DNA of 64,000 nt from Enterobacteria phage vB_EcoM_IME341. A program made the translations under genes and the position numbers. Positions 4,498 to 60,430 of this stretch are shown here, in pieces (positions within the stretch are counted from its first letter, which is position 1; every line of letters starts with the position of its first letter). The notes under the pieces were generated by a model. The model had not been told where the DNA came from. It did no database searches and saw only the letters and a program-made list of their open reading frames with translations. Where the stretch lies: sequence record MH051917, one strand, 5' to 3'.

Positions 4498-4764
4498 ATG
4501 GATATCAAATTGTATTACGCTAAACACAAAGTTACAGGTATGGTTGTTGCCGCTATGTATGATGCATCGGGTGAAGGTGATGATGTTACTACAGAGTTAT
4601 CTCTTTCTGAATGTAAATTTCTCCGTCCTTTGGTTGCATCAAAGGAAGATTTACAAAAACTTATCGACGGTAAACTAGATAATGTTGACGGCATAGATAT
4701 TCTTTATGACCTCCGCACTGCATTGTACAGGGGATTGATTGAGATAAAAGAGGTGGTGTTTTGA
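4498..4764 (+). CDS. hypothetical protein
   Basis: ATG 4498 after SD aatgaggag; 88 aa. Confidence 0.45.
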   Translation: MDIKLYYAKHKVTGMVVAAMYDASGEGDDVTTELSLSECKFLRPLVASKEDLQKLIDGKLDNVDGIDILYDLRTALYRGLIEIKEVVF

Positions 4765-4854
4765 GTAGCAAAACGTGGTGCCTTATTTGGATGGCCTGTA
4801 TCCCAGTGATTTGCGTATGTTTTAGTTTATTGTTGTGGAAATTGGCATAAATCA

Positions 4855-4906
4855 GTATACATCTCCATTAGACATGATATTATAGACCTATCAACTAATG
4901 GAGATG
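4855..4906 (+). promoter_or_regulatory. early promoter embedded in stem-loop (PeSL-type)
   Basis: GTATAC 4855-4860, TATTAT 4878-4883; perfect 11-bp inverted repeat catctccatta (4860-4870) / taatggagatg (4896-4906). Confidence 0.55.
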
Positions 4907-4909
4907 ATT

Positions 4910-5020
4910 ATGAAAAATTTACTTAAAGCAATTTGGAACATGTTTGTGTTGTTAATGGTATTGAGCATTTTCCCAATCGTTTTTATGATTGACCATGTAC
5001 GTGTATTCTTTAACTTCTGA
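4910..5020 (+). CDS. small hydrophobic peptide (36 aa)
   Basis: short ORF MKNLLKAIWNMFVLLMVLSIFPIVFMIDHVRVFFNF downstream of promoter; below track length cutoff. Confidence 0.25.
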   Translation: MKNLLKAIWNMFVLLMVLSIFPIVFMIDHVRVFFNF

Positions 5021-5030
5021 GGAAAATATT

Positions 5031-5243
5031 ATGAAACTTTTTAAAGATGTTGCAGTTGGTGAGAGCTTTGTATTACATAATGGTCAACAACTGATTCGCA
5101 TTTCTCCTTTGCAAGTCGGGACCGAATTACAACCTGTTAATGCTACAGACCTTTACGATTCAACTAAGCGCTTTTGTGTAGGCCCCAGTGTACAGTGCCT
5201 TACCGTTGATGAACTGATGGCTATTTCTGTTGACGCTGAATAA
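5031..5243 (+). CDS. hypothetical protein
   Basis: ATG 5031 after SD tgaggaaaa; track ORF begins at TTG 4989. Confidence 0.4.
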   Translation: MKLFKDVAVGESFVLHNGQQLIRISPLQVGTELQPVNATDLYDSTKRFCVGPSVQCLTVDELMAISVDAE

Positions 5244-5253
5244 GGAAATTATC

Positions 5254-5598
5254 ATGTCTAAAATCTTTTTTGGTAATGCTAAGGTAATGTTCTTTAAACA
5301 ACTCAGCCTTCAGGATGCATCGGTGGCATTCAATCAAAGTATGATTCCTGGCGTAGATTCAAAAATTATGACGAGTGCTGATTTCGTTTTTGTTCAAGAC
5401 CCGGAAACGGGCTTTTATCGGTTCATTAAATTTCGTATGAGTATGGACCCGTATTATCATAGCGGCTATTATGTGAGTTATGAAAATGTTATCAAAGAAC
5501 TACATGATACTTACGGACAGGCTTTGAACCCACTGAACAAGGTTTATAATGCTACCTTTTATACAAGCGGATTTATTTTAGAACAGCTACAAAAATAG
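5254..5598 (+). CDS. hypothetical protein
   Basis: ATG 5254 after SD aaggaaa; 114 aa. Confidence 0.45.
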   Translation: MSKIFFGNAKVMFFKQLSLQDASVAFNQSMIPGVDSKIMTSADFVFVQDPETGFYRFIKFRMSMDPYYHSGYYVSYENVIKELHDTYGQALNPLNKVYNATFYTSGFILEQLQK

Positions 5599-6540: not shown

Positions 6541-6673
6541 GAAAATCTTGGGCTACTTGTTAGCCCTTGCTGCTTTATTAGTAGCACTGTATTATGGAGT
6601 AATGTTCGGACTTATCCAAGTTGTGCTTTTTATTTCCGATGTTATTATGGCTATTCATTCACTAGTATGGTAA
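6533..6673 (+). CDS. small membrane protein (46 aa)
   Basis: hydrophobic ORF overlapping previous stop. Confidence 0.3.
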   Translation: MIKKILGYLLALAALLVALYYGVMFGLIQVVLFISDVIMAIHSLVW

Positions 6674-6677
6674 AATT

Positions 6678-8006
6678 ATGGAATTAACATCTCGTGGTTT
6701 AAAAAGTATTATCGACAACGAAGCATTGGCTTATGCAATGTATACTGTCGAAAACCGAGCCATTCCAAATATGATTGATGGCTTTAAACCTGTACAACGT
6801 TTTGTAGTTGCTCGTTGTCTTGATATGGCTCGTGGTAATAAAGAAAAATTCCACAAACTGGCTTCTATTGCTGGTGGCGTGGCCGACCTTGGATATCACC
6901 ACGGTGAAGGTTCTGCTCAGGAAGCAGGGGCTTTGATGGCTAACACATGGAACAACAACTATCCATTGTTAGACGGTCAAGGTAACTTCGGTTCTCGATT
7001 GGTTCAAAAGGCTGCAGCCTCTCGTTATATCTTTGCACGTATTGGAAGTAACTTTGCAAAAGTTTATAAGGACACAGAATATGCTCCGGTTCATGCGGAT
7101 GTCGAACATAAGCCACCGGCTTTTTATCTGCCTATTATTCCTACTGTTCTTCTTAATGGCGTTTCCGGTATTGCAACTGGTTATGCAACTAATATTCTTC
7201 CTCATAGTTTTGATTCTGTTAAGAAAGCTGTATTGCAAGTTCTTCAGGAAAAACGCGTAACCAAACCCAAAGTGGCTTATCCTGAATTCCGCGGTGAAGT
7301 TGTTGAAATTGAACCAGGTAGTTATGAGATTCGTGGAACGTATAAGTTCACATCCCGAACCCAAATGCATATCACGGAAATTCCTTATAAGTACGACCGT
7401 GAAACGTATGTGGCTAAGATATTGGACCCTCTGGAAGACAAAGGGTATATCACATATGACGATGACTGTGACGAGAACGGTTTCGGCTTCAAGGTTAAGA
7501 TTCGTAAAGAATACGAATTGCCTACTGATGAAGATAAGAAACACGAAAAACTCATGAAGGACTTCGGGTTAATCGAACGTCGTTCACAAAACCTGACTGT
7601 CATTAATGAGAAAGGTAAACTTAAGGTTTACGAAGATGCAGTTGAACTGATTCGTGATTTCGTTGAGGTCCGTAAGACCTTTGTACAGAAACGTATTGAT
7701 GGTAAAATCATCGAAACTGAAGAAGCTTTCAAACTGGCATTGGCTAAAGCCACATTTATCAAAGATGTTATTGATGGTGTAGTGGTTATCCAAGGTAAGA
7801 CTCGCAAGGTTTTAACCGAAGAATTGGCTAGTAATAAAGTCTATGGCGAATACGCTGATAAACTAGTGGCCATGAACATTTTCCATATCACATCCGATGA
7901 AGCCAAGAAACTGGCCCTCGAAGCCAAAGCTAAGAAAGAAGAGCACCAATACTGGAAAACCACTGATGTGGTAACTGAGTATGTTAAAGATTTGGAGGCT
8001 CTATGA
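6678..8006 (+). CDS. 52: DNA topoisomerase II medium subunit gp52 (GyrA-like)
   Basis: 442 aa, same length as T4 gp52; N-terminal GyrA-like motifs (AYAMYTVENRAIPNMIDGFKPVQRF). Confidence 0.9.
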   Translation: MELTSRGLKSIIDNEALAYAMYTVENRAIPNMIDGFKPVQRFVVARCLDMARGNKEKFHKLASIAGGVADLGYHHGEGSAQEAGALMANTWNNNYPLLDGQGNFGSRLVQKAAASRYIFARIGSNFAKVYKDTEYAPVHADVEHKPPAFYLPIIPTVLLNGVSGIATGYATNILPHSFDSVKKAVLQVLQEKRVTKPKVAYPEFRGEVVEIEPGSYEIRGTYKFTSRTQMHITEIPYKYDRETYVAKILDPLEDKGYITYDDDCDENGFGFKVKIRKEYELPTDEDKKHEKLMKDFGLIERRSQNLTVINEKGKLKVYEDAVELIRDFVEVRKTFVQKRIDGKIIETEEAFKLALAKATFIKDVIDGVVVIQGKTRKVLTEELASNKVYGEYADKLVAMNIFHITSDEAKKLALEAKAKKEEHQYWKTTDVVTEYVKDLEAL

Positions 8007-27836: not shown

Positions 27837-28945
<1,109 letters not shown>

Positions 28946-28958
<13 letters not shown>

Positions 28959-29818
28959 TGAAACAATACCAAAATTTGATTAAAGATATCCTGGAAAATG
29001 GCTACGAAACTGACGACCGTACCGGCACCGGTACAATTGCACTGTTCGGTACTAAATTACGTTTTGATTTAACTAAAGGCTTCCCAGCGGTAACAACTAA
29101 AAAATTAGCATGGAAAGCCTGTATTGCTGAGCTCCTTTGGTTCTTGTCAGGTTCGACTAATGTTAATGACCTCAGAGAACGTACTCATGGCTCGCGTACT
29201 GAAGGTAAAACTATTTGGGACGAAAACTATGAAAATCAGGCAATTTCTCTGGGATATTCTGATGGCGAACTGGGTCCTGTGTACGGGAAACAATGGCGAG
29301 ATTTTGGTGGTGTCGACCAGGTTGTAGAAATTATTGACCGTATTAAAAAGATGCCTAATGACCGTCGTCAAATCGTATCAGCATGGAACCCGGCCGAAAT
29401 CGACCAGATGGCTCTTCCACCGTGCCACTGTTTTTACCAGTTCAACGTTCGTAATGGTCATTTAGACCTCCAATGGTATCAGCGTTCTGTTGACGTGTTC
29501 TTAGGATTGCCATTTAATATCGCCTCTTACGCCGCTCTTGTGCATATCGTAGCTAAGATGTGTAATCTTATTCCAGGTGATTTAGTGTTCTCAGGCGGCA
29601 ATACGCACATCTATTCTAACCATGTTGAACAATGCCAGGAAGTTCTTCGTCGCGAACCTAAAGAACTGTGTGAACTGGAAATTAATTGGCCTGAAGGATT
29701 CGCAAACTGGTCTACCACGTTACAACTTTATTGGGTTACAGAACGAATGAGCCACGAAGATTTTAAACTCATTGGTTACGAATCACACCCTACTATTAAG
29801 GCTAAAATGGCTGTATGA
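28946..29818 (+). CDS. td: thymidylate synthase (uninterrupted, no intron)
   Basis: 290 aa continuous ORF with conserved TS motifs (DRTGTGT, active-site region ALPPCH). Confidence 0.95.
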
Positions 29819-29859
29819 AAATTCAAATAATCTGTACTCTGTTTTTGGTTATTATGGTC

Positions 29860-29916
29860 GGACTGAATTTCATTCTATAAATATCAGTCCATGCTTAACA
29901 GGTTCTATGATAGAAT
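29860..29916 (+). promoter_or_regulatory. promoter region upstream of nrdA: hairpin with TATAAATA in loop plus MotA-box-like middle promoter
   Basis: stem ggactga (29860-29866) / tcagtcc (29884-29890); TATAAATA 29876-29883; TGCTTaA box 29892-29898, 12-nt gap, TAGAAT 29911-29916. Confidence 0.35.
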
Positions 29917-29946
29917 AATTGTAGAACCTAACATATTGAGGAAATT

Positions 29947-32202
29947 ATGCAAGTACAAAAAAGTAGCGGTGTATCCCAAGATTTTGACGCACAAAAAATT
30001 ATTAAAGTTCTGACTTGGGGCTGTGAAGGAACCCAAATCGACCCCTATGAATTATACGAAGAAATCAAATCTCATCTTCGTGATGGTATGACTACCAAAG
30101 ATATCCAGAATCTGACTGTTAAGGTCGCAGCCAACCTTATTTCGGTTGAAGAGCCTGATTACCAATATGTTGCTGCAAAGCAATTGATGTTTGCACTGCG
30201 TAAAGAAGTTTATGGCCAATTCGAACCACGTAGTTTTATCGACCATATTTCCTATTGTGTTAACGAAGGTAAATATGACCCTGAATTGCTGTCTCGATAT
30301 TCTGCAGAAGAAATTACTTTCTTAGAATCTCATATCAAGCATGAACGTGACTTTGAATTGACCTATGCCGGCGCAATGCAGCTTAAAGAGAAATATCTGG
30401 TTAAAGATAAAACAACCGGTAAAATCTACGAGACCCCTCAGTTCGCTATCATGTGTATTGGTATGGCCTTACACCAAGAAGAGCCAGGTAATCGTTTAGC
30501 ACATATTATTCGTTTTTATGATGCTGTAAGTACTCGTCAGGTTTCGTTGCCTACCCCTATTATGGCTGGAGCGCGTACACCGACTCGCCAATTTAGTTCT
30601 TGTGTGGTTATTGAAGCAGGCGACTCGCTGAAATCTATTAACAAAACTGCTAACTCGATAATTGAATACATTTCTAAACGTGCAGGTATTGGTATCAACG
30701 TTGGTATGATTCGTGCTGAAGGTTCTCGTATTGGCATGGGTGAAGTCAAACATACTGGTGTTATTCCATTCTGGAAACATTTCCAGACTGCTGTTAAATC
30801 ATGTTCACAAGGTGGAATCCGTGGCGGCGCTGCTACTGCTTATTATCCTATTTGGCATTTGGAAGTTGAAAATCTGCTCGTTCTGAAAAACAACAAGGGT
30901 GTCGATGAGAACCGTATTCGACATATGGACTACGGAATCCAGTTGAACGACCTGATGATGGAACGTTTCGGTAAGAATGATTACATTACCCTGTTTAGTC
31001 CTCATGAAATGAGTGGTGAGCTTTACCATTCTTATTTCGAAGACCAAGACCGTTTCCGTGAATTGTATGAAGCGGCTGAAAAAGACCCTAGTATTCGTAA
31101 GAAACGTATTAAAGCACGTGACCTTTTTGAATTGTTCATGACTGAACGTTCGGGAACTGCACGAATTTATCCACAGTTCGTTGACAACACTAACAACTTC
31201 ACACCATTTATTCGTGAGAAAGCTCCTATTCGTCAGAGTAACTTGTGTTGTGAAATTGCTATCCCAACTACTGATGTGAATAGTCCGGATGCCGAAATTG
31301 GCTTGTGTACGTTGTCTGCATTTGTGCTGGATAACTTTGATTGGCAAGACCAAGACAAAATCAACGAGCTGGCTGAAGTACAAGTACGTGCACTAGATAA
31401 CCTGTTGGACTACCAAGATTATCCTGTTCCTGAAGCTCTTAAGGCTAAGAAACGTCGTAACCTCGGTGTGGGTGTTACGAACTACGCCGCTTGGTTGGCA
31501 AGCAACTTTGCTTCTTATGAAGACGCTAACGATTTAACTCACGAACTGTTTGAGAGATTACAATATGGACTTATCCGAGCATCAATCAAGTTGGCCGAAG
31601 AAAAAGGACCTTGCGAGTATTATTCAGACACTAAATGGTCTCGAGGCGAATTACCTATCGACTGGTACAATAAAAAGATTGACCAAATCGCAGCTCCAAA
31701 ATACGTTTGTGACTGGACGTCGTTGCGGGAAGACTTGGCTAAACATGGCATCCGTAATAGCACATTATCAGCACTTATGCCATGCGAATCAAGCAGCCAG
31801 GTTTCCAACTCTACAAACGGTATCGAACCTCCGCGCGGCCCAGTAAGTATTAAAGAATCTAAAGAAGGTAACTTCCGTCAGGTAGTTCCTAATGTAGAAC
31901 ATAACCAAGGGCTCTACGATTACGCTTGGACCCTCGCTAAGAAAGGTAATAAACCTTATCTTACCCAAGTGGCGATTATGTTGAAATGGGTATGCCAATC
32001 TGCATCAGCTAACACGTATTATGACCCACAGATTTTTCCAAAAGGAAAAGTTCCGATGTCTGTAATGCTTGATGACCTGCTATATTTCTGGTATTATGGC
32101 GGAAAAAATCTCTATTATCACAATACCCGTGATGGTTCTGGTACTGACGATTACGAAATCGAAACTCCTAAAGCCGACGATTGTGCAGCATGTAAGCTTT
32201 AA
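29947..32202 (+). CDS. nrdA: ribonucleotide reductase large subunit
   Basis: 751 aa; class Ia RNR alpha motifs including C-terminal CxxC. Confidence 0.95.
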   Translation: MQVQKSSGVSQDFDAQKIIKVLTWGCEGTQIDPYELYEEIKSHLRDGMTTKDIQNLTVKVAANLISVEEPDYQYVAAKQLMFALRKEVYGQFEPRSFIDHISYCVNEGKYDPELLSRYSAEEITFLESHIKHERDFELTYAGAMQLKEKYLVKDKTTGKIYETPQFAIMCIGMALHQEEPGNRLAHIIRFYDAVSTRQVSLPTPIMAGARTPTRQFSSCVVIEAGDSLKSINKTANSIIEYISKRAGIGINVGMIRAEGSRIGMGEVKHTGVIPFWKHFQTAVKSCSQGGIRGGAATAYYPIWHLEVENLLVLKNNKGVDENRIRHMDYGIQLNDLMMERFGKNDYITLFSPHEMSGELYHSYFEDQDRFRELYEAAEKDPSIRKKRIKARDLFELFMTERSGTARIYPQFVDNTNNFTPFIREKAPIRQSNLCCEIAIPTTDVNSPDAEIGLCTLSAFVLDNFDWQDQDKINELAEVQVRALDNLLDYQDYPVPEALKAKKRRNLGVGVTNYAAWLASNFASYEDANDLTHELFERLQYGLIRASIKLAEEKGPCEYYSDTKWSRGELPIDWYNKKIDQIAAPKYVCDWTSLREDLAKHGIRNSTLSALMPCESSSQVSNSTNGIEPPRGPVSIKESKEGNFRQVVPNVEHNQGLYDYAWTLAKKGNKPYLTQVAIMLKWVCQSASANTYYDPQIFPKGKVPMSVMLDDLLYFWYYGGKNLYYHNTRDGSGTDDYEIETPKADDCAACKL

Positions 32203-32237
32203 TAAAATCTGATTATAATTGACTCATGGATGAGTCA
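32193..32237 (+). promoter_or_regulatory. putative middle promoter plus 18-bp palindrome upstream of nrdB
   Basis: aGCTTtA box 32195-32201, 12-nt gap, TATAAT 32214-32219; palindrome tgactcat-gg-atgagtca 32220-32237. Confidence 0.35.
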
Positions 32238-32255
32238 CTAACAAATGAGAATAAT

Positions 32256-33395
32256 ATGTCTACAGTTTTTAATACCACCCCAGTTGATGTTTTAGTCGAA
32301 CCGATGTTCTTTGGTTCAGGATTGGGTATTGCTCGTTATGATATCCAACGTCATAAAGTATTCGAAGAGCTTTGTGAAAAGCAGTTGAGTTTTTTCTGGC
32401 GTCCAGAAGAAGTCAACTTGATGATGGATGCTGCTCAATTTAATAAGCTTCCACAGTTCCAACAAAATATTTTTACAAATAACCTGAAGTATCAATCACT
32501 TCTGGATAGTATCCAAGGACGTGCTCCTTCTGCTGCACTCCAAGCCTTGATTTCAGACCCTAGCCTTGATACTTGGGTGGCAACATGGACCTTTAGTGAA
32601 ACCATTCACTCTCGTTCATATACCCATATCATGCGTAACCTCTATACAGACCCATCTAAGGTATTTGATGAAATTCTGTTAGATGACGCTATCATGAAAC
32701 GGGCTGAATCTATTGGTCGTTATTATGATGATGTCATTGAGAAAACTCGCCTTTATCAGAATGCTTTAGAAGAATATCATGAGTTTAGCGAAGGCGTAAA
32801 ACAGGCCAAATACGAACTAATGCGTTCTCTTTATCTTTGCCTGCATGTAATCAACGCCCTAGAAGCTATTCGTTTTTATGTATCTTTTGCATGTACCTTT
32901 AACTTCCATAAAAACATGGAAATCATGGAAGGTAATGCTAAGATTATGAAGTTCATTGCACGTGATGAACAGCTCCACCTTAAAGGCACCCAGTACATTA
33001 TTCGTCAGCTTCAACTTGGTACTGATGGCGACGAATGGGTTAAAATTGCTCAAGAGTGTGAACAGGAAGCGGTTGATATTTTCATGGAAGTTAACCGTCA
33101 AGAAAAAGAATGGGCCGCCCACCTGTTCAAAGATGGTACTTGCCCTGGATTAAATACTCAGAACATGGGTGCTTTTGTCGATTACCTGACAGTTTCTCGT
33201 ATGAAGCAATGTGGCTTACCGTGTCCTATTACTGATGCTCCTACTCGCCATCCTTATCCTTGGATTCGCGAATACCTGAACTCTGATGCTGTACAGGCTG
33301 CTCCTCAGGAAGTGGAAATCAGTTCTTACCTTGTAGCACAAATTGATAACGATGTTGATGAAAAAGTAATGGCATCGTACAAGAAATATTTTTAA
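32256..33395 (+). CDS. nrdB: ribonucleotide reductase small subunit (uninterrupted, no intron)
   Basis: MSTVFNT start as in T4 NrdB; continuous ORF; track start 32226 lies inside the palindrome. Confidence 0.9.
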   Translation: MSTVFNTTPVDVLVEPMFFGSGLGIARYDIQRHKVFEELCEKQLSFFWRPEEVNLMMDAAQFNKLPQFQQNIFTNNLKYQSLLDSIQGRAPSAALQALISDPSLDTWVATWTFSETIHSRSYTHIMRNLYTDPSKVFDEILLDDAIMKRAESIGRYYDDVIEKTRLYQNALEEYHEFSEGVKQAKYELMRSLYLCLHVINALEAIRFYVSFACTFNFHKNMEIMEGNAKIMKFIARDEQLHLKGTQYIIRQLQLGTDGDEWVKIAQECEQEAVDIFMEVNRQEKEWAAHLFKDGTCPGLNTQNMGAFVDYLTVSRMKQCGLPCPITDAPTRHPYPWIREYLNSDAVQAAPQEVEISSYLVAQIDNDVDEKVMASYKKYF

Positions 33396-33400
33396 GGAAT

Positions 33401-33414
33401 GGGGCTTCGGCCCC
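33401..33414 (+). other. UUCG hairpin GGGGC-TTCG-GCCCC immediately upstream of denA
   Basis: 5-bp GC stem with ttcg loop between nrdB stop and denA ATG. Confidence 0.5.
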
Positions 33415-33422
33415 TTATTGCT

Positions 33423-33836
33423 ATGAAAGAAATCGCAGACGAATTTAGCTTTATCAAGTACGTCACCCTAGAACTCCAAGATGACGCCACCATAGCTCCA
33501 CTCACAGTACCAAATAAACAAAATGTCATATATGCTATAGCGGTTGATGATATACTAGTCTACATCGGGAAGACTAAAAATCTTCGTAAGCGCATCAACT
33601 ACTACCGAACCGCTATTAATCGTAAGGACCAAACGTCAGATTCGACTAAGTCCATTCTGATTCATGAAGCATTAATGGCAGGTAAAAAGGTAGAGTTCTA
33701 TGCACGGCAGTGCTTTAATCTGTCGATGACTAACGAACTTGGAACTATGTCAGTTGAGACCATGTCTCTTGAAGAGCCAATGTTCATAAAGAAATTTAAT
33801 CCACCTTGGAATACCCAACATAGGATAAAGCAATGA
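33423..33836 (+). CDS. denA: endonuclease II (GIY-YIG family)
   Basis: MKEIADEFSFIKY..NVIYAIAVDDILVYIGKTKNLRKRINYYRTAINRKD closely matches recalled T4 EndoII. Confidence 0.85.
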   Translation: MKEIADEFSFIKYVTLELQDDATIAPLTVPNKQNVIYAIAVDDILVYIGKTKNLRKRINYYRTAINRKDQTSDSTKSILIHEALMAGKKVEFYARQCFNLSMTNELGTMSVETMSLEEPMFIKKFNPPWNTQHRIKQ

Positions 33837-34981
33837 TTGAATTATATGATAACTTGATGGCCCTGGTTAAAAACTCGACTAAATCTAAGTTCTTCTTTAA
33901 AGACTTTCAGAGTGCGCTAGGAGTCAACTATCGCATCTTTAGTTATAACTATGCATCGTACAGTGATTGGTTGGAAGACGGCGCCCTAGAGTGTCGAGGC
34001 ATTATGTTTGAAATGGACGAGAATGGTCCGGTACGTATTGCTGCTCGTCCTATGCAAAAGTTCTTTAACCTCGACGAAAACCCTATGACTATCGGTCTGG
34101 ACTTGTCGCCAGAAAATATCGACCTCGTAATGGCTAAGGAAGATGGTTCTCTGATTTCTACATTCATGGACCGACAGTATCTTTCTGTTAAATCTAAAGG
34201 CTCTATCCATTCGTCAATGGTGCACGATTCTTTACGTTTCCTTCGTCTCCCTGAGAACGAGGCTTTTGCCGCACGTCTAGAAGAAATCACCAAAGCCGGG
34301 TATACCTGCAACCTTGAATATGTCGCACCTACCAACCGTATCGTGCTGGCTTACCAAGAAACGAACCTCATCCTGTTAAACGTTCGTAATAATGAAACAG
34401 GTGAGTATATTCCATATGCTGAACTGTTTAAGGACGGCGCGCTGCGTAAGCATTTGGTTGAAAGTTATGACCTCACCGAAGGTGATTTCGTAGAAAACAT
34501 CCGTAAACAAGAGGGTATTGAAGGTTTTATCTTTGTACTGAAAGATGGTACGTTCTTTAAACTCAAAACTGCATGGTACAGTGCACTGCATCATACCAAA
34601 GATTCCATTAACAATAACGAACGTTTGTTTGAAGTTGTAGTGGCGGGTGGAACTGATGACCTTCGTGGTCTGTTCAGTACAGATTCGTTTGCTATCGAGA
34701 AAATCGATGCCTTCGAACGTATCCATTTAGATTACTTAGAACAATCATTGGCTTTGTTGGAAGCAGCTTACTCTCAACTCAAGGGCCGCGACCGTAAAGA
34801 CTACGCTGTTACTGGACAGCTAATCCTTAAGGACTTCCCAGGGTTGTTCTCTATTCTTATGCAGGCGTACGTAGGCGGTATTAATTATGATACGGTTGTA
34901 GACCAGATTAACTCTGTGTTCTTGAAAAACCATAAAGCCCAAATCCCTGAAAAATATTTGAAAGAAATTGCGGTAGAGTAG
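33833..34981 (+). CDS. rnlA: RNA ligase 1
   Basis: 382 aa; YRIFSYNYASYSDW..ECRGIMFEMD..KEDGSL (adenylation lysine motif) match recalled T4 Rnl1. Confidence 0.9.
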   Translation: MIELYDNLMALVKNSTKSKFFFKDFQSALGVNYRIFSYNYASYSDWLEDGALECRGIMFEMDENGPVRIAARPMQKFFNLDENPMTIGLDLSPENIDLVMAKEDGSLISTFMDRQYLSVKSKGSIHSSMVHDSLRFLRLPENEAFAARLEEITKAGYTCNLEYVAPTNRIVLAYQETNLILLNVRNNETGEYIPYAELFKDGALRKHLVESYDLTEGDFVENIRKQEGIEGFIFVLKDGTFFKLKTAWYSALHHTKDSINNNERLFEVVVAGGTDDLRGLFSTDSFAIEKIDAFERIHLDYLEQSLALLEAAYSQLKGRDRKDYAVTGQLILKDFPGLFSILMQAYVGGINYDTVVDQINSVFLKNHKAQIPEKYLKEIAVE

Positions 34982-58771: not shown

Positions 58772-58798
58772 TTGCTGTTCAAATGAATAGTGTATAAT
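58771..58798 (+). promoter_or_regulatory. promoter upstream of uvsY (MotA-box-like plus TATAAT)
   Basis: aTTGCTgTT box 58771-58779, 13-nt gap, TATAAT 58793-58798; box has two mismatches. Confidence 0.35.
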
Positions 58799-58829
58799 GG
58801 TCCTATGGTTATTACACAGGAAACATGCG

Positions 58830-59267
58830 ATGAGTAAAGAGATTGAATATAAATTAGAGTCATTCCAAGATGCTTTGGATGAAGATTTGAAGATTGATGG
58901 GACTCGTTTACAGTATGAAGTACAGAACAACGTTTTGCTGCACAGCAAATGGCTAAGACTGTATACGAATTGTAAGAAAGAAATAATGAGATTAGAAATC
59001 CAGAAAAAGACCTCACTTAAGAAGCGATTAGATTTCTACACGGGACGTGGAGAGCCTGGTGATGAGGTTTGTATGGACCAATATGAGAAGTCTGAATTAA
59101 AGACCGTAATGGCTGCAGATTCTAGTGTAATTAAAATCGATACGTCAATCCAGTATTGGGCTTTATTACAGGACTTCTGTAGTTCGGCTTTAGACGCAGT
59201 CAAAGCCAGAGGTTTCTCATTAAAGAATATGTTGGAGCTCAGGAAATTTGAAGCAGGTGAAAAATAA
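58830..59267 (+). CDS. uvsY: UvsY recombination mediator
   Basis: LQYE..NNV.L.SKWL; RLD.Y.GRG; M..YEKSE.KTV..AD..V.K.DTS.QYW..L.DFCS.ALDA.K.RGF match recalled T4 UvsY; start moved to ATG 58830. Confidence 0.85.
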   Translation: MSKEIEYKLESFQDALDEDLKIDGTRLQYEVQNNVLLHSKWLRLYTNCKKEIMRLEIQKKTSLKKRLDFYTGRGEPGDEVCMDQYEKSELKTVMAADSSVIKIDTSIQYWALLQDFCSSALDAVKARGFSLKNMLELRKFEAGEK

Positions 59268-59946
59268 AAAGTACCATATGTGCTACCAAACTTTAGTATA
59301 CTCGCCTAACGGAACTAGGCGATATTTTGGTAAGCATTCTTCTGATAAAATATCTGACAAGTATGTAGGGTCTGGTAATTACATCTATTATGCAAAAAGA
59401 TTAAAATACCGAATTGAAATAGTCGATAGGACTTTTTTCGATACCGAACAACTTGCTTATGAATTCGAAGAGCTTTTGATAGAAGAGGCTTGGGATAAGT
59501 TTGGTAAAGGTATTCGCTGTATGAATATGAAACCTGGTGGTGAAGGAGGTAGTTGTACTACTCGTTCTCCTGAATCTATTGAAAAGAGTGCGTCGAAAAT
59601 ACGAGGTATTCCAAGGTCTGAATCCACCAAACAAGCCATAAGTGCGGGTCATAAAAGAAATCCATATTCTCATACAGAAGAAGCTAAAAAAGCTATGTCA
59701 TTAGCCAAATTAGGTAAGAAACGTACCAAAGAGGCTAATGAGGCCCATATAGGTAAACATTCACAGCCTAAGCTTTCTATGAGAAGTAAATTATGGGAAT
59801 TTGAAAAGGAAATCCGTGAACTTTGGATAAAGGAAGGAATGCCTAAAAGAAGGAAATTTCAACGCATAATAGTTGAGAATGGATTTCCTGATTTAGATGT
59901 AGGTTATATGGTTAAAACATTTGAAAAGAATTTGGCTAATAAATAG
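59268..59946 (+). mobile_element. free-standing homing-endonuclease gene inserted between uvsY and uvsW
   Basis: Seg-like ORF in an intergenic slot that carries no such gene in the T4 order as recalled. Confidence 0.4.
59278..59946 (+). CDS. Seg-like GIY-YIG homing endonuclease with NUMOD3-type DNA-binding repeats
   Basis: N-terminal CYQTLVYSPNGTRRYFGKH..KYVGSG (GIY-YIG-like); repeated RSESTKQAIS / HTEEAKKAMS elements; start uncertain (track starts at TTG 59248). Confidence 0.5.
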   Translation: MCYQTLVYSPNGTRRYFGKHSSDKISDKYVGSGNYIYYAKRLKYRIEIVDRTFFDTEQLAYEFEELLIEEAWDKFGKGIRCMNMKPGGEGGSCTTRSPESIEKSASKIRGIPRSESTKQAISAGHKRNPYSHTEEAKKAMSLAKLGKKRTKEANEAHIGKHSQPKLSMRSKLWEFEKEIRELWIKEGMPKRRKFQRIIVENGFPDLDVGYMVKTFEKNLANK

Positions 59947-60202: not shown

Positions 60203-60430
60203 TTAGAAATCTTCCTCTTCCTCGTCGTCCATCGACTCCAATTCAGCTCTCTTACCAGCCAATGCATCGCGTACGCTGATATCATCCGAATCACGAAGTT
60301 CGGCTTCCTTACTACGAGTTTTGTAATACTTCTCTAATTCCTCCAGACCTTCCATGGTCTGACACGAACTAATTTTAGACATGAAGCTTTCAATAGATGC
60401 TTCCTGAATAACTTCTTTAAAGGTTTTCAT
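60203..60430 (-). CDS. uvsW.1: UvsW.1 (C-terminal accessory protein of UvsW helicase)
   Basis: 75 aa acidic protein immediately downstream of uvsW (T4 UvsW.1 about 76 aa). Confidence 0.7.
   Translation of the reverse strand: MKTFKEVIQEASIESFMSKISSCQTMEGLEELEKYYKTRSKEAELRDSDDISVRDALAGKRAELESMDDEEEEDF

Follow-up and report, generated by a model that had tools for sequence, protein, structure and literature searches.

The td–nrdA–nrdB region of Enterobacteria phage vB_EcoM_IME341 without T4-type introns and with a 53-bp nrdA–nrdB spacer

The genes td, nrdA and nrdB, encoding thymidylate synthase and both subunits, large and small, of ribonucleotide reductase (RNR), were analyzed in a stretch of 64,000 nucleotides of Enterobacteria phage vB_EcoM_IME341 (sequence record MH051917). 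This whole stretch is referred to as the window; positions are those of the window, and features lie on its plus strand unless stated otherwise. The three genes are embedded in the plus-strand order frd, an open reading frame (ORF) of 68 amino acids (aa), td, nrdA, nrdB, denA and rnlA. The closest public genomes are those of the Dhakavirus phages IME281, dhaeg, JS10, JS98, IME08, C6 and KIT01, with 92–96% identity, and none of them is identical to the window. The window is that of a Dhakavirus, i.e., a T4-like phage of the JS98/JS10/IME08 type. The corresponding region of phage T4 served as comparator: there, td is interrupted by an intron with I-TevI, nrdA and nrdB are separated by mobE and nrdB.1, and nrdB has an intron with a remnant of I-TevIII.

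The gene td (28958–29818) is a continuous reading frame of 286 aa. An earlier reading of the locus from the letters of the DNA (the sequence-only reading) had placed its start at TTG 28946, where the maximal ORF begins; this was corrected to ATG 28958, from which the protein starts with MKQYQ, as in T4 and T2. The product was identified as a thymidylate synthase by a full-length match to PF00303 (1–266 of 266, E value 2e-100) and by the catalytic cysteine in the motif PPCH at residue 154. It is colinear with the spliced T4 enzyme (286 versus 286 aa, about 80% identical), without a gap at the site of intron insertion. In a blastn comparison with T4, the 1017-bp td intron fell exactly in the break between two consecutive window segments, and the insertion point corresponds to 29506|29507.

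The gene nrdB (32256–33395; 379 aa) is likewise uninterrupted. Its start had been set at ATG 32226, which lies inside a palindrome; in the relative fDHCT2, the equivalent of this ATG is split from nrdB by an insert of about 840 bp with a methylase gene of 804 bp. The start was corrected to ATG 32256 (MSTVFNT, as in T4 and T2), and therefore the gap between nrdA and nrdB measures 53 bp (32203–32255) and not 23 bp. NrdB matches Ribonuc_red_sm (PF00268) and is about 87% identical to the spliced T4 protein, with no gap at the insertion site. That it has 379 aa compared to 388 aa in T4 is due to a variable loop at about residues 165–190 and not to truncation. The di-iron and radical residues are intact (equivalents of D84, E115/H118/Y122, E204 and E238/H241), and the motifs DSIQGR, ETIHSRSY, EAIRF and RDEQLH are present. 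The 598-bp T4 nrdB intron again fell exactly in the break between window segments (insertion point 32892|32893). Around this point, 58 of 60 nt are identical to the T4 exons, and they run continuously across it.

Between these two genes, nrdA (29947–32202) encodes an uninterrupted protein of 751 aa (754 aa in T4; 89% aa identity). Its ATP-cone (PF03477), all-alpha (PF00317) and barrel (PF02867) domains were found with Pfam, and the C-terminal CxxC is intact (CAACKL). By domains and motifs, NrdA and NrdB form a class Ia RNR.

Intron cores and endonuclease genes were searched for directly. At its gathering threshold, the Rfam model RF00028 misses even the T4 introns and is not a valid test; E-value mode was used instead. 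In this mode, the T4 positive control gave 40.3 bits (E value 9e-8) for the td intron and 35.7 bits for the nrdB intron, and nothing was found between 28000 and 35100 or in the window as a whole. A catalytic core together with an interrupted gene, as expected of a group I intron, was found in neither td nor nrdB. Comparison of MobE, I-TevI, I-TevIII and the T4 proteins of nrdB.1, nrdA.1 and nrdA.2 by phmmer with all six-frame segments of the window yielded no match (the T4 MobE query itself is PF01844 positive), and remnants of the fDHCT2 dam gene or of Dhakavirus nrdA.1 were absent from the td–nrdB region. Thus, the proposal that td and nrdB are intron-less was confirmed: the alignment to the T4 exon junctions has no gap at either insertion point, and neither an interrupted frame nor intron core elements, both of which were looked for, came to light.

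Could an intron or endonuclease gene be present and have escaped detection, such as an intron that is divergent or has no ORF, or a nuclease gene of very small size? Since the gathering threshold fails on the T4 introns as well, a negative result obtained there means little. However, the genes equal the T2 genes and the spliced T4 genes in length, the protein alignments show no insertion at or near the sites, E-value mode was negative with a working positive control, and the spacers flanking nrdA, with 128 and 53 bp, are too short for an ORF of at least 40 aa. With the chance of a missed element being close to nil, this reading is effectively refuted. A further alternative is that the nrdB site is secondarily empty, i.e., that an intron was once present (or the segment was exchanged with an intron-bearing phage) and was lost precisely, leaving a gene-conversion footprint. 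Such a footprint might be seen in nrdB codons 201–290, where synonymous identity to T4 is 63/81 in comparison to 129/229 elsewhere (Fisher p 5e-4), and in the nucleotide identity of 91–92% within 200 bp of the insertion site, which is about 75–83% elsewhere. However, nrdB nt ~570–870 is the sole part that can be aligned at the DNA level to nrdB of cyanophage, Vibrio, Proteus and jumbo Klebsiella phages, and the stretch is equally conserved with regard to the intron-less T2. Therefore, general constraint on the iron-ligand helices explains the signal, and a conversion footprint in this conserved segment was rejected in favor of constraint. Conserved stretches of this kind are known targets of homing endonucleases (PMC2790892; PMC2988022), no intron remnant was found, and all Dhakavirus genomes inspected are intron-less. 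Precise loss of a former nrdB intron is therefore considered very unlikely.

Between nrdA and nrdB, the 53-bp spacer holds no ORF of at least 40 aa on either strand, and the phmmer search with MobE was empty, in agreement with the claim that no homing endonuclease gene lies there. The spacer had been described as a putative promoter plus an 18-bp palindrome. Both elements were found, with the amendment that the repeat, TGACTCAT-GG-ATGAGTCA at 32220–32237, consists of 8-nt arms around a non-symmetric GG. The putative MotA-dependent middle promoter of nrdB (32192–32219) comprises GTAAGCTTTA at 32192–32201, which overlaps the nrdA stop codon, a distance of 12 bp and TATAAT at 32214–32219. In T4, middle promoters have a MotA box (wwwTGCTTtA) 12 ± 1 bp upstream of a good −10 element (TAtaaT) (PMC2988021). 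In phages without mobE, the middle promoter of nrdB lies either at the nrdA 3′ end or within the nrdA–nrdB spacer, and this spacer has no terminator (PMC2790892). With the arrangement observed here, nrdB would gain an extra MotA-type middle promoter with its MotA box overlapping the nrdA stop codon.

Further elements were found in the 128-bp spacer between td and nrdA (29819–29946). It contains TATAAATA at 29876–29883, a MotA-box-like CCATGCTTAA at 29889–29898 (with TGCTTAA), followed after 12 bp by TAGAAT at 29911–29916, and an inverted repeat GGACTGA/TCAGTCC (29860–29866 and 29884–29890). As judged from the letters, CCATGCTTAA with TAGAAT conforms to the rule for middle promoters in the same way as the nrdB site. 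Early, middle and late promoters have been characterized upstream of nrdA in T4 (PMC2790892), and the elements in the td–nrdA spacer appear to match this promoter set. Placed within this spacer, a late promoter (TATAAATA) and a MotA-type middle promoter would both transcribe nrdA. The spacer is also the place where nrdA.1 (DUF4326, about 97 aa) is cleanly absent, the junction reading GAATTT-CATT-CTATAAATA as in IME08 and C6. In JS10, IME281, KIT01 and fDHCT2, the 293-bp nrdA.1 cassette is present and carries its own −10-like element, TGCTATAAT.

The palindrome follows the −10 element of the nrdB promoter directly on its 3′ side. As RNA, it could fold into a 7-bp stem (TGACTCA/TGAGTCA) with a 4-nt loop and about −8 kcal/mol, lacking a U tract. 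No intrinsic terminator (G+C-rich hairpin plus U tract) was found in the scan of 32203–32255. A transcript from the nrdB middle promoter would begin within the palindrome, and therefore the hairpin would form only in RNA reading through from nrdA into nrdB, where it would be a small structural or processing element and not a terminator. Several observations weigh against such a regulatory role of the spacer. The stability of the spacer hairpin does not exceed that of shuffled sequence (z = −0.76), and the palindrome variants of JS10, KIT01 and T2 weaken loop-proximal pairs without compensatory change. Support for the hairpin by covariation was rejected, as the three variants only weaken the stem. 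Thus, conservation of the palindrome could reflect a site acting at the DNA level rather than an RNA structure. A generic scan for sigma-70 promoters and terminators gave no match in either spacer, with as many hits as in shuffles, and is uninformative for MotA-type or late promoters; the missing sigma-70 match is expected for MotA-type promoters but lends them no positive support. Finally, for promoter activity as for the role of the hairpin, the sequence is the only basis.

Across six Dhakavirus relatives, the spacer is near-invariant and its palindrome is kept. In T2, too, the block TATAAT-T(T)GACTCATGGAYGAGTCACTA is part of the spacer, the rest of which cannot be aligned; the palindrome is absent from T4. 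Two other interpretations of the palindrome were discarded. PeSL cassettes of RB49-type phages combine a strong sigma-70 early promoter, AT-rich upstream DNA and a terminating stem-loop (typically GGGG...CCCC), and occur in many intergenic copies (PMC2839356); the element described here has neither a −35 element or −35/−10 pair nor a terminator, and is single-copy. A dispersed repeat was rejected as well, with a single copy in the window and matches in just eight IMG/VR contigs, four of which measure about 170.5 kb, a length typical of Dhakavirus genomes. In fDHCT2, a D12-class N6-adenine DNA methylase gene (PF02086, E value 1e-19) lies directly after the palindrome (fDHCT2 positions 4674–5477; window equivalent ~32240), and TAACAAA is found on both flanks of the insert. 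When the methylase gene with about 80 bp of flank on each side was used as query, eight records covered at least 80% of it. Among the matches listed, two Tequatrovirus-like phages (~167 kb) carry a 79%-identical methylase in the corresponding position, again between nrdA and nrdB. Next to mobE and hef, the latter according to a title cited in PMC2988022, the methylase makes a third type of occupant for this gap.

The locus was compared with those of T4, T2 and other Dhakavirus phages. T4 has orthologous genes (80–89% aa identity) that agree with those of the window in their order and in the context of the insertion sites. It differs by 1017 bp of additional DNA in td, 696 bp in the nrdA–nrdB gap and 598 bp in nrdB, by its lack of the palindrome, by the placement of the middle promoter of nrdB inside mobE (PMC2790892) and by an nrdB intron with a defunct I-TevIII. 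T2 (AP018813), the classical intron-less and mobE-less recipient in T4 × T2 crosses, has an 861-bp td and an intron-less nrdB, as does the window. Its nrdA–nrdB spacer of about 51 bp contains TATAAT followed by TGACTCATGGACGAGTCA, and it shares AAG at nrdB codon 42 and the FFWRPEE block with the window. In contrast to the window, T2 has an NrdB of 392 aa (379 aa in the window), keeps nrdA.1 and nrdA.2 where the window is without nrdA.1, and carries at the frd–td junction an unrelated 115-aa ORF (phrog_1928) and not phrog_9550. JS98, JS10, IME08, C6, KIT01, IME281 and fDHCT2 have the same gene order, intron-less td and nrdB, and a near-identical 53-bp spacer; neither introns nor mobE were present at the td–nrdB locus in any of the six Dhakavirus relatives inspected.

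Homing endonuclease genes (HEGs) have been counted as none in JS98, none in JS10, one in T2 and 15 in T4 (PMC2993671, Table 5). The three intron HEGs reside in the T-even cluster (PMC2993671), and T4 has been termed the outlier (PMC2988022). To this may be added counts of records in the phage collection covering at least 80% of the T4-type sequence: 197 for the td intron, 118 for the nrdB intron and 20 for mobE plus nrdB.1 (143 with any match). In comparison, 880 records match the td–nrdB region and 926 hold a near-complete nrdB.

Relative to T4, td, nrdB and the nrdA–nrdB gap are empty sites, as the sequence-only reading had stated, and their layout is that of the homing recipient T2. They are not special, since T2 and the six Dhakavirus relatives are likewise intron-less. 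The additional suggestion that these alleles would be useful as recipients in homing studies found partial support and is only plausible, because the homology to T4 is short of that of T2, notwithstanding the conserved target motifs. With the 38-bp I-TevI homing site taken as defined in PMC2988022 and PMC5009752, comparison with T4 located its homologue at 29480–29517. I-TevI requires C1 and G5 of 5′-CNNNG-3′, 27–23 nt upstream of the insertion site (PMC5009752). The window has CAGCG at 29480–29484 in the register of the T4 CAACG, with C1 and G5 kept; JS10 has CAACG. Overall, 27 of 38 positions of the site are identical to T4, as are 14 of 20 in the primary binding region, and I-TevI binds an operator with 15 of 20 matches at full affinity (PMC2988022). 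Many CNNNG triplets are not cleaved (PMC5009752), and this source makes no mention of cleavage of CAGCG by I-TevI.

In nrdB, nt 114–156 of the gene (32369–32411) are homologous to the MobE target and were delimited using the nick sites and the bipartite model of PMC2790892. Codon 42 is AAG (32379–32381), as in all mobE-less phages, and the FFWRPEE block, conserved in MobE-sensitive phages (PMC2790892), is encoded at 32391–32411. Around the nick sites, the window and T2 share an identical stretch of 11 nt (GAAAAGCAGTT). With these features, the stretch is a putative MobE target site. For I-TevIII, the counterpart of the target site is the nrdB insertion point, where 58 of 60 nt agree with the T4 exons. 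Around the td and nrdB target sites, T2 is 92–95% identical to T4, compared to 74% (td) and 82–91% (nrdB) for the window. Within 200 bp of each site, the identity to T4 is 74% for the window and 95% for T2 at the td insertion site, 82% and 87% at the MobE site, and 91% and 93% at the nrdB insertion site. The repair step of homing needs homology, in which the window is behind T2. Movement of these elements across clusters has not been documented (PMC2993671).

Two other scenarios may be set against the view of an ordinary, simply intron-free locus. According to one, the td allele is resistant to the endonuclease, synonymous changes across the I-TevI site having been selected against cleavage. 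In td codons 131–195 (29348–29542), which include the cleavage and insertion sites, the protein is identical to that of T4, yet synonymous identity to T4 and T2 is only 0.17–0.26 in windows of 25 codons, below the 0.41 expected for independent codon choice. There are 12 of 55 synonymous matches to T4 in this region and 83 of 164 elsewhere (Fisher p 2.5e-4; binomial p 0.002 against the expected 0.41), the variants are common to all four Dhakavirus sequences compared, and the central triplet of the cleavage motif is changed (CAGCG versus CAACG) where many CNNNG sequences are poor substrates (PMC5009752). However, the signal is post hoc, the region having been picked after the profile was viewed, and base composition explains part of the deficit, as the G+C content at third codon positions in the block rises locally to 0.49 in the window and is 0.31 in T4. 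Moreover, C1 and G5 remain in place with the proper spacing, JS10 even has the T4 motif, the binding region has 14 of 20 matches and an operator with 15 of 20 is bound at full affinity, and td as a whole is at synonymous saturation with regard to T4 (0.434 observed, 0.432 expected). An immune td allele is thus unlikely. The other scenario regards the promoter and palindrome block at the end of nrdA as a conserved landing pad for recurrent insertion of unrelated cargo. T2 and Dhakavirus have the block in common while the remainder of the spacer cannot be aligned. The cargo would be mobE plus nrdB.1 in T4 and the Dam-like methylase directly 3′ of the palindrome in fDHCT2, with its 79%-identical relative in the Tequatrovirus-like phages. 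Taken with the separate proposal of selected immune alleles, this was judged improbable, and an ordinary spacer of a mobE-less phage remains the preferred interpretation.

With regard to its neighboring genes, small optional cassettes make the locus a mosaic. Upstream of td, frd (28174–28755) encodes a dihydrofolate reductase of 193 aa (PF00186, E value 2.8e-19; 83% nucleotide identity to T4 frd). The 68-aa ORF at the frd–td junction (28752–28958) matches phrog_9550 over its full length (E value 5.5e-45). It represents a 202-bp presence/absence cassette, which is intact and 98.5–100% identical in KIT01, JS10 and IME281 and absent from T4, T2, C6, IME08 and fDHCT2; frd and td overlap in C6, IME08, fDHCT2 and T4. 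A clean 293-bp presence/absence difference from JS10, IME281, KIT01 and fDHCT2 is due to nrdA.1. The combination seen in the window (68-aa ORF present, nrdA.1 absent, NrdB of 379 aa, no dam and no HEG at this locus) is matched exactly by none of six relatives. The NrdB loop (32740–32830) occurs in two allelic lengths: the NrdB of the window, JS10, IME08 and fDHCT2 has 379 aa, and that of C6, KIT01 and IME281 has 392 aa, as in T2. Just upstream of the loop, nrdB codons 131–185 show a synonymous match to T2 of 0.77–0.92 compared to 0.50–0.60 to T4, which suggests a recombinant patch.

Downstream of nrdB, denA (33399–33836) encodes endonuclease II (phrog_1111, E value 4.6e-64; weak GIY-YIG match) and lies directly 3′ of nrdB; it is annotated 27 bp shorter in some relatives. 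At 33401–33414, 6 nt past the nrdB stop codon, a hairpin GGGGCTTCGGCCCC with five G–C pairs and a UUCG loop is followed by TTATTGCTAT; it was scored as terminator-like in the scan and overlaps the annotated denA start codon (33399). This hairpin could mark the end of the nrdB transcript or act as a gate on denA translation. The next gene, rnlA (33833–34981), overlaps denA by 4 bp (33833–33836), and the junction sequence is free of an insert. In IME281, a seg-like GIY-YIG gene of 216 aa (positions 6663–7313 of that genome; phrog_314, E value 4e-16; YIYKIT...YYIGK) lies between denA and rnlA, and the window has, at its overlap, a further empty site, two genes 3′ of nrdB.

Elsewhere in the window, a 232-aa ORF (59248–59946) was found between uvsY (58797–59267) and the minus-strand genes uvsW.1/uvsW. 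It matches PHROG 314, labeled homing endonuclease (E value 5.5e-17), and the seg-like protein of IME281 (phmmer E value 5.6e-13); it has no Pfam match, and its GIY-YIG-like N-terminus looks degenerate. The window therefore carries a putative free-standing endonuclease gene outside the td–nrdB locus, unlike the published count of none for JS98 and JS10. On the minus strand, a match to the Rfam family RAGATH-33 at 60287–60397, inside uvsW.1 (60203–60430), reached 33.6 bits compared to a gathering score of 120.4 (E value 0.005) and is most likely due to chance.

Taken together, td, nrdA and nrdB are intact genes that align colinearly with the spliced genes of T4, the locus is free of intron cores and endonuclease ORFs, and conservation of the nrdA–nrdB spacer extends through the genus and, in part, to T2. 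The region is very probably an ordinary nucleotide-metabolism block of a JS98-type phage without T4-type introns, and its nrdA–nrdB gap the 53-bp regulatory spacer of mobE-less phages. In such a history, T4-type group I introns would never have been present in td and nrdB, or are at least absent from them now. The intron-less state is already known: it has been published for the JS98 group and is shared by most T4 relatives. For these phages, td and nrdB without introns and an unoccupied nrdA–nrdB gap are ordinary, and the finding carries little weight in this respect. As by-products, corrected gene starts were obtained and homologues of the target sites of I-TevI, I-TevIII and MobE were mapped. 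The cassette mosaic could aid the design of cross-genus homing or marker-exclusion experiments.

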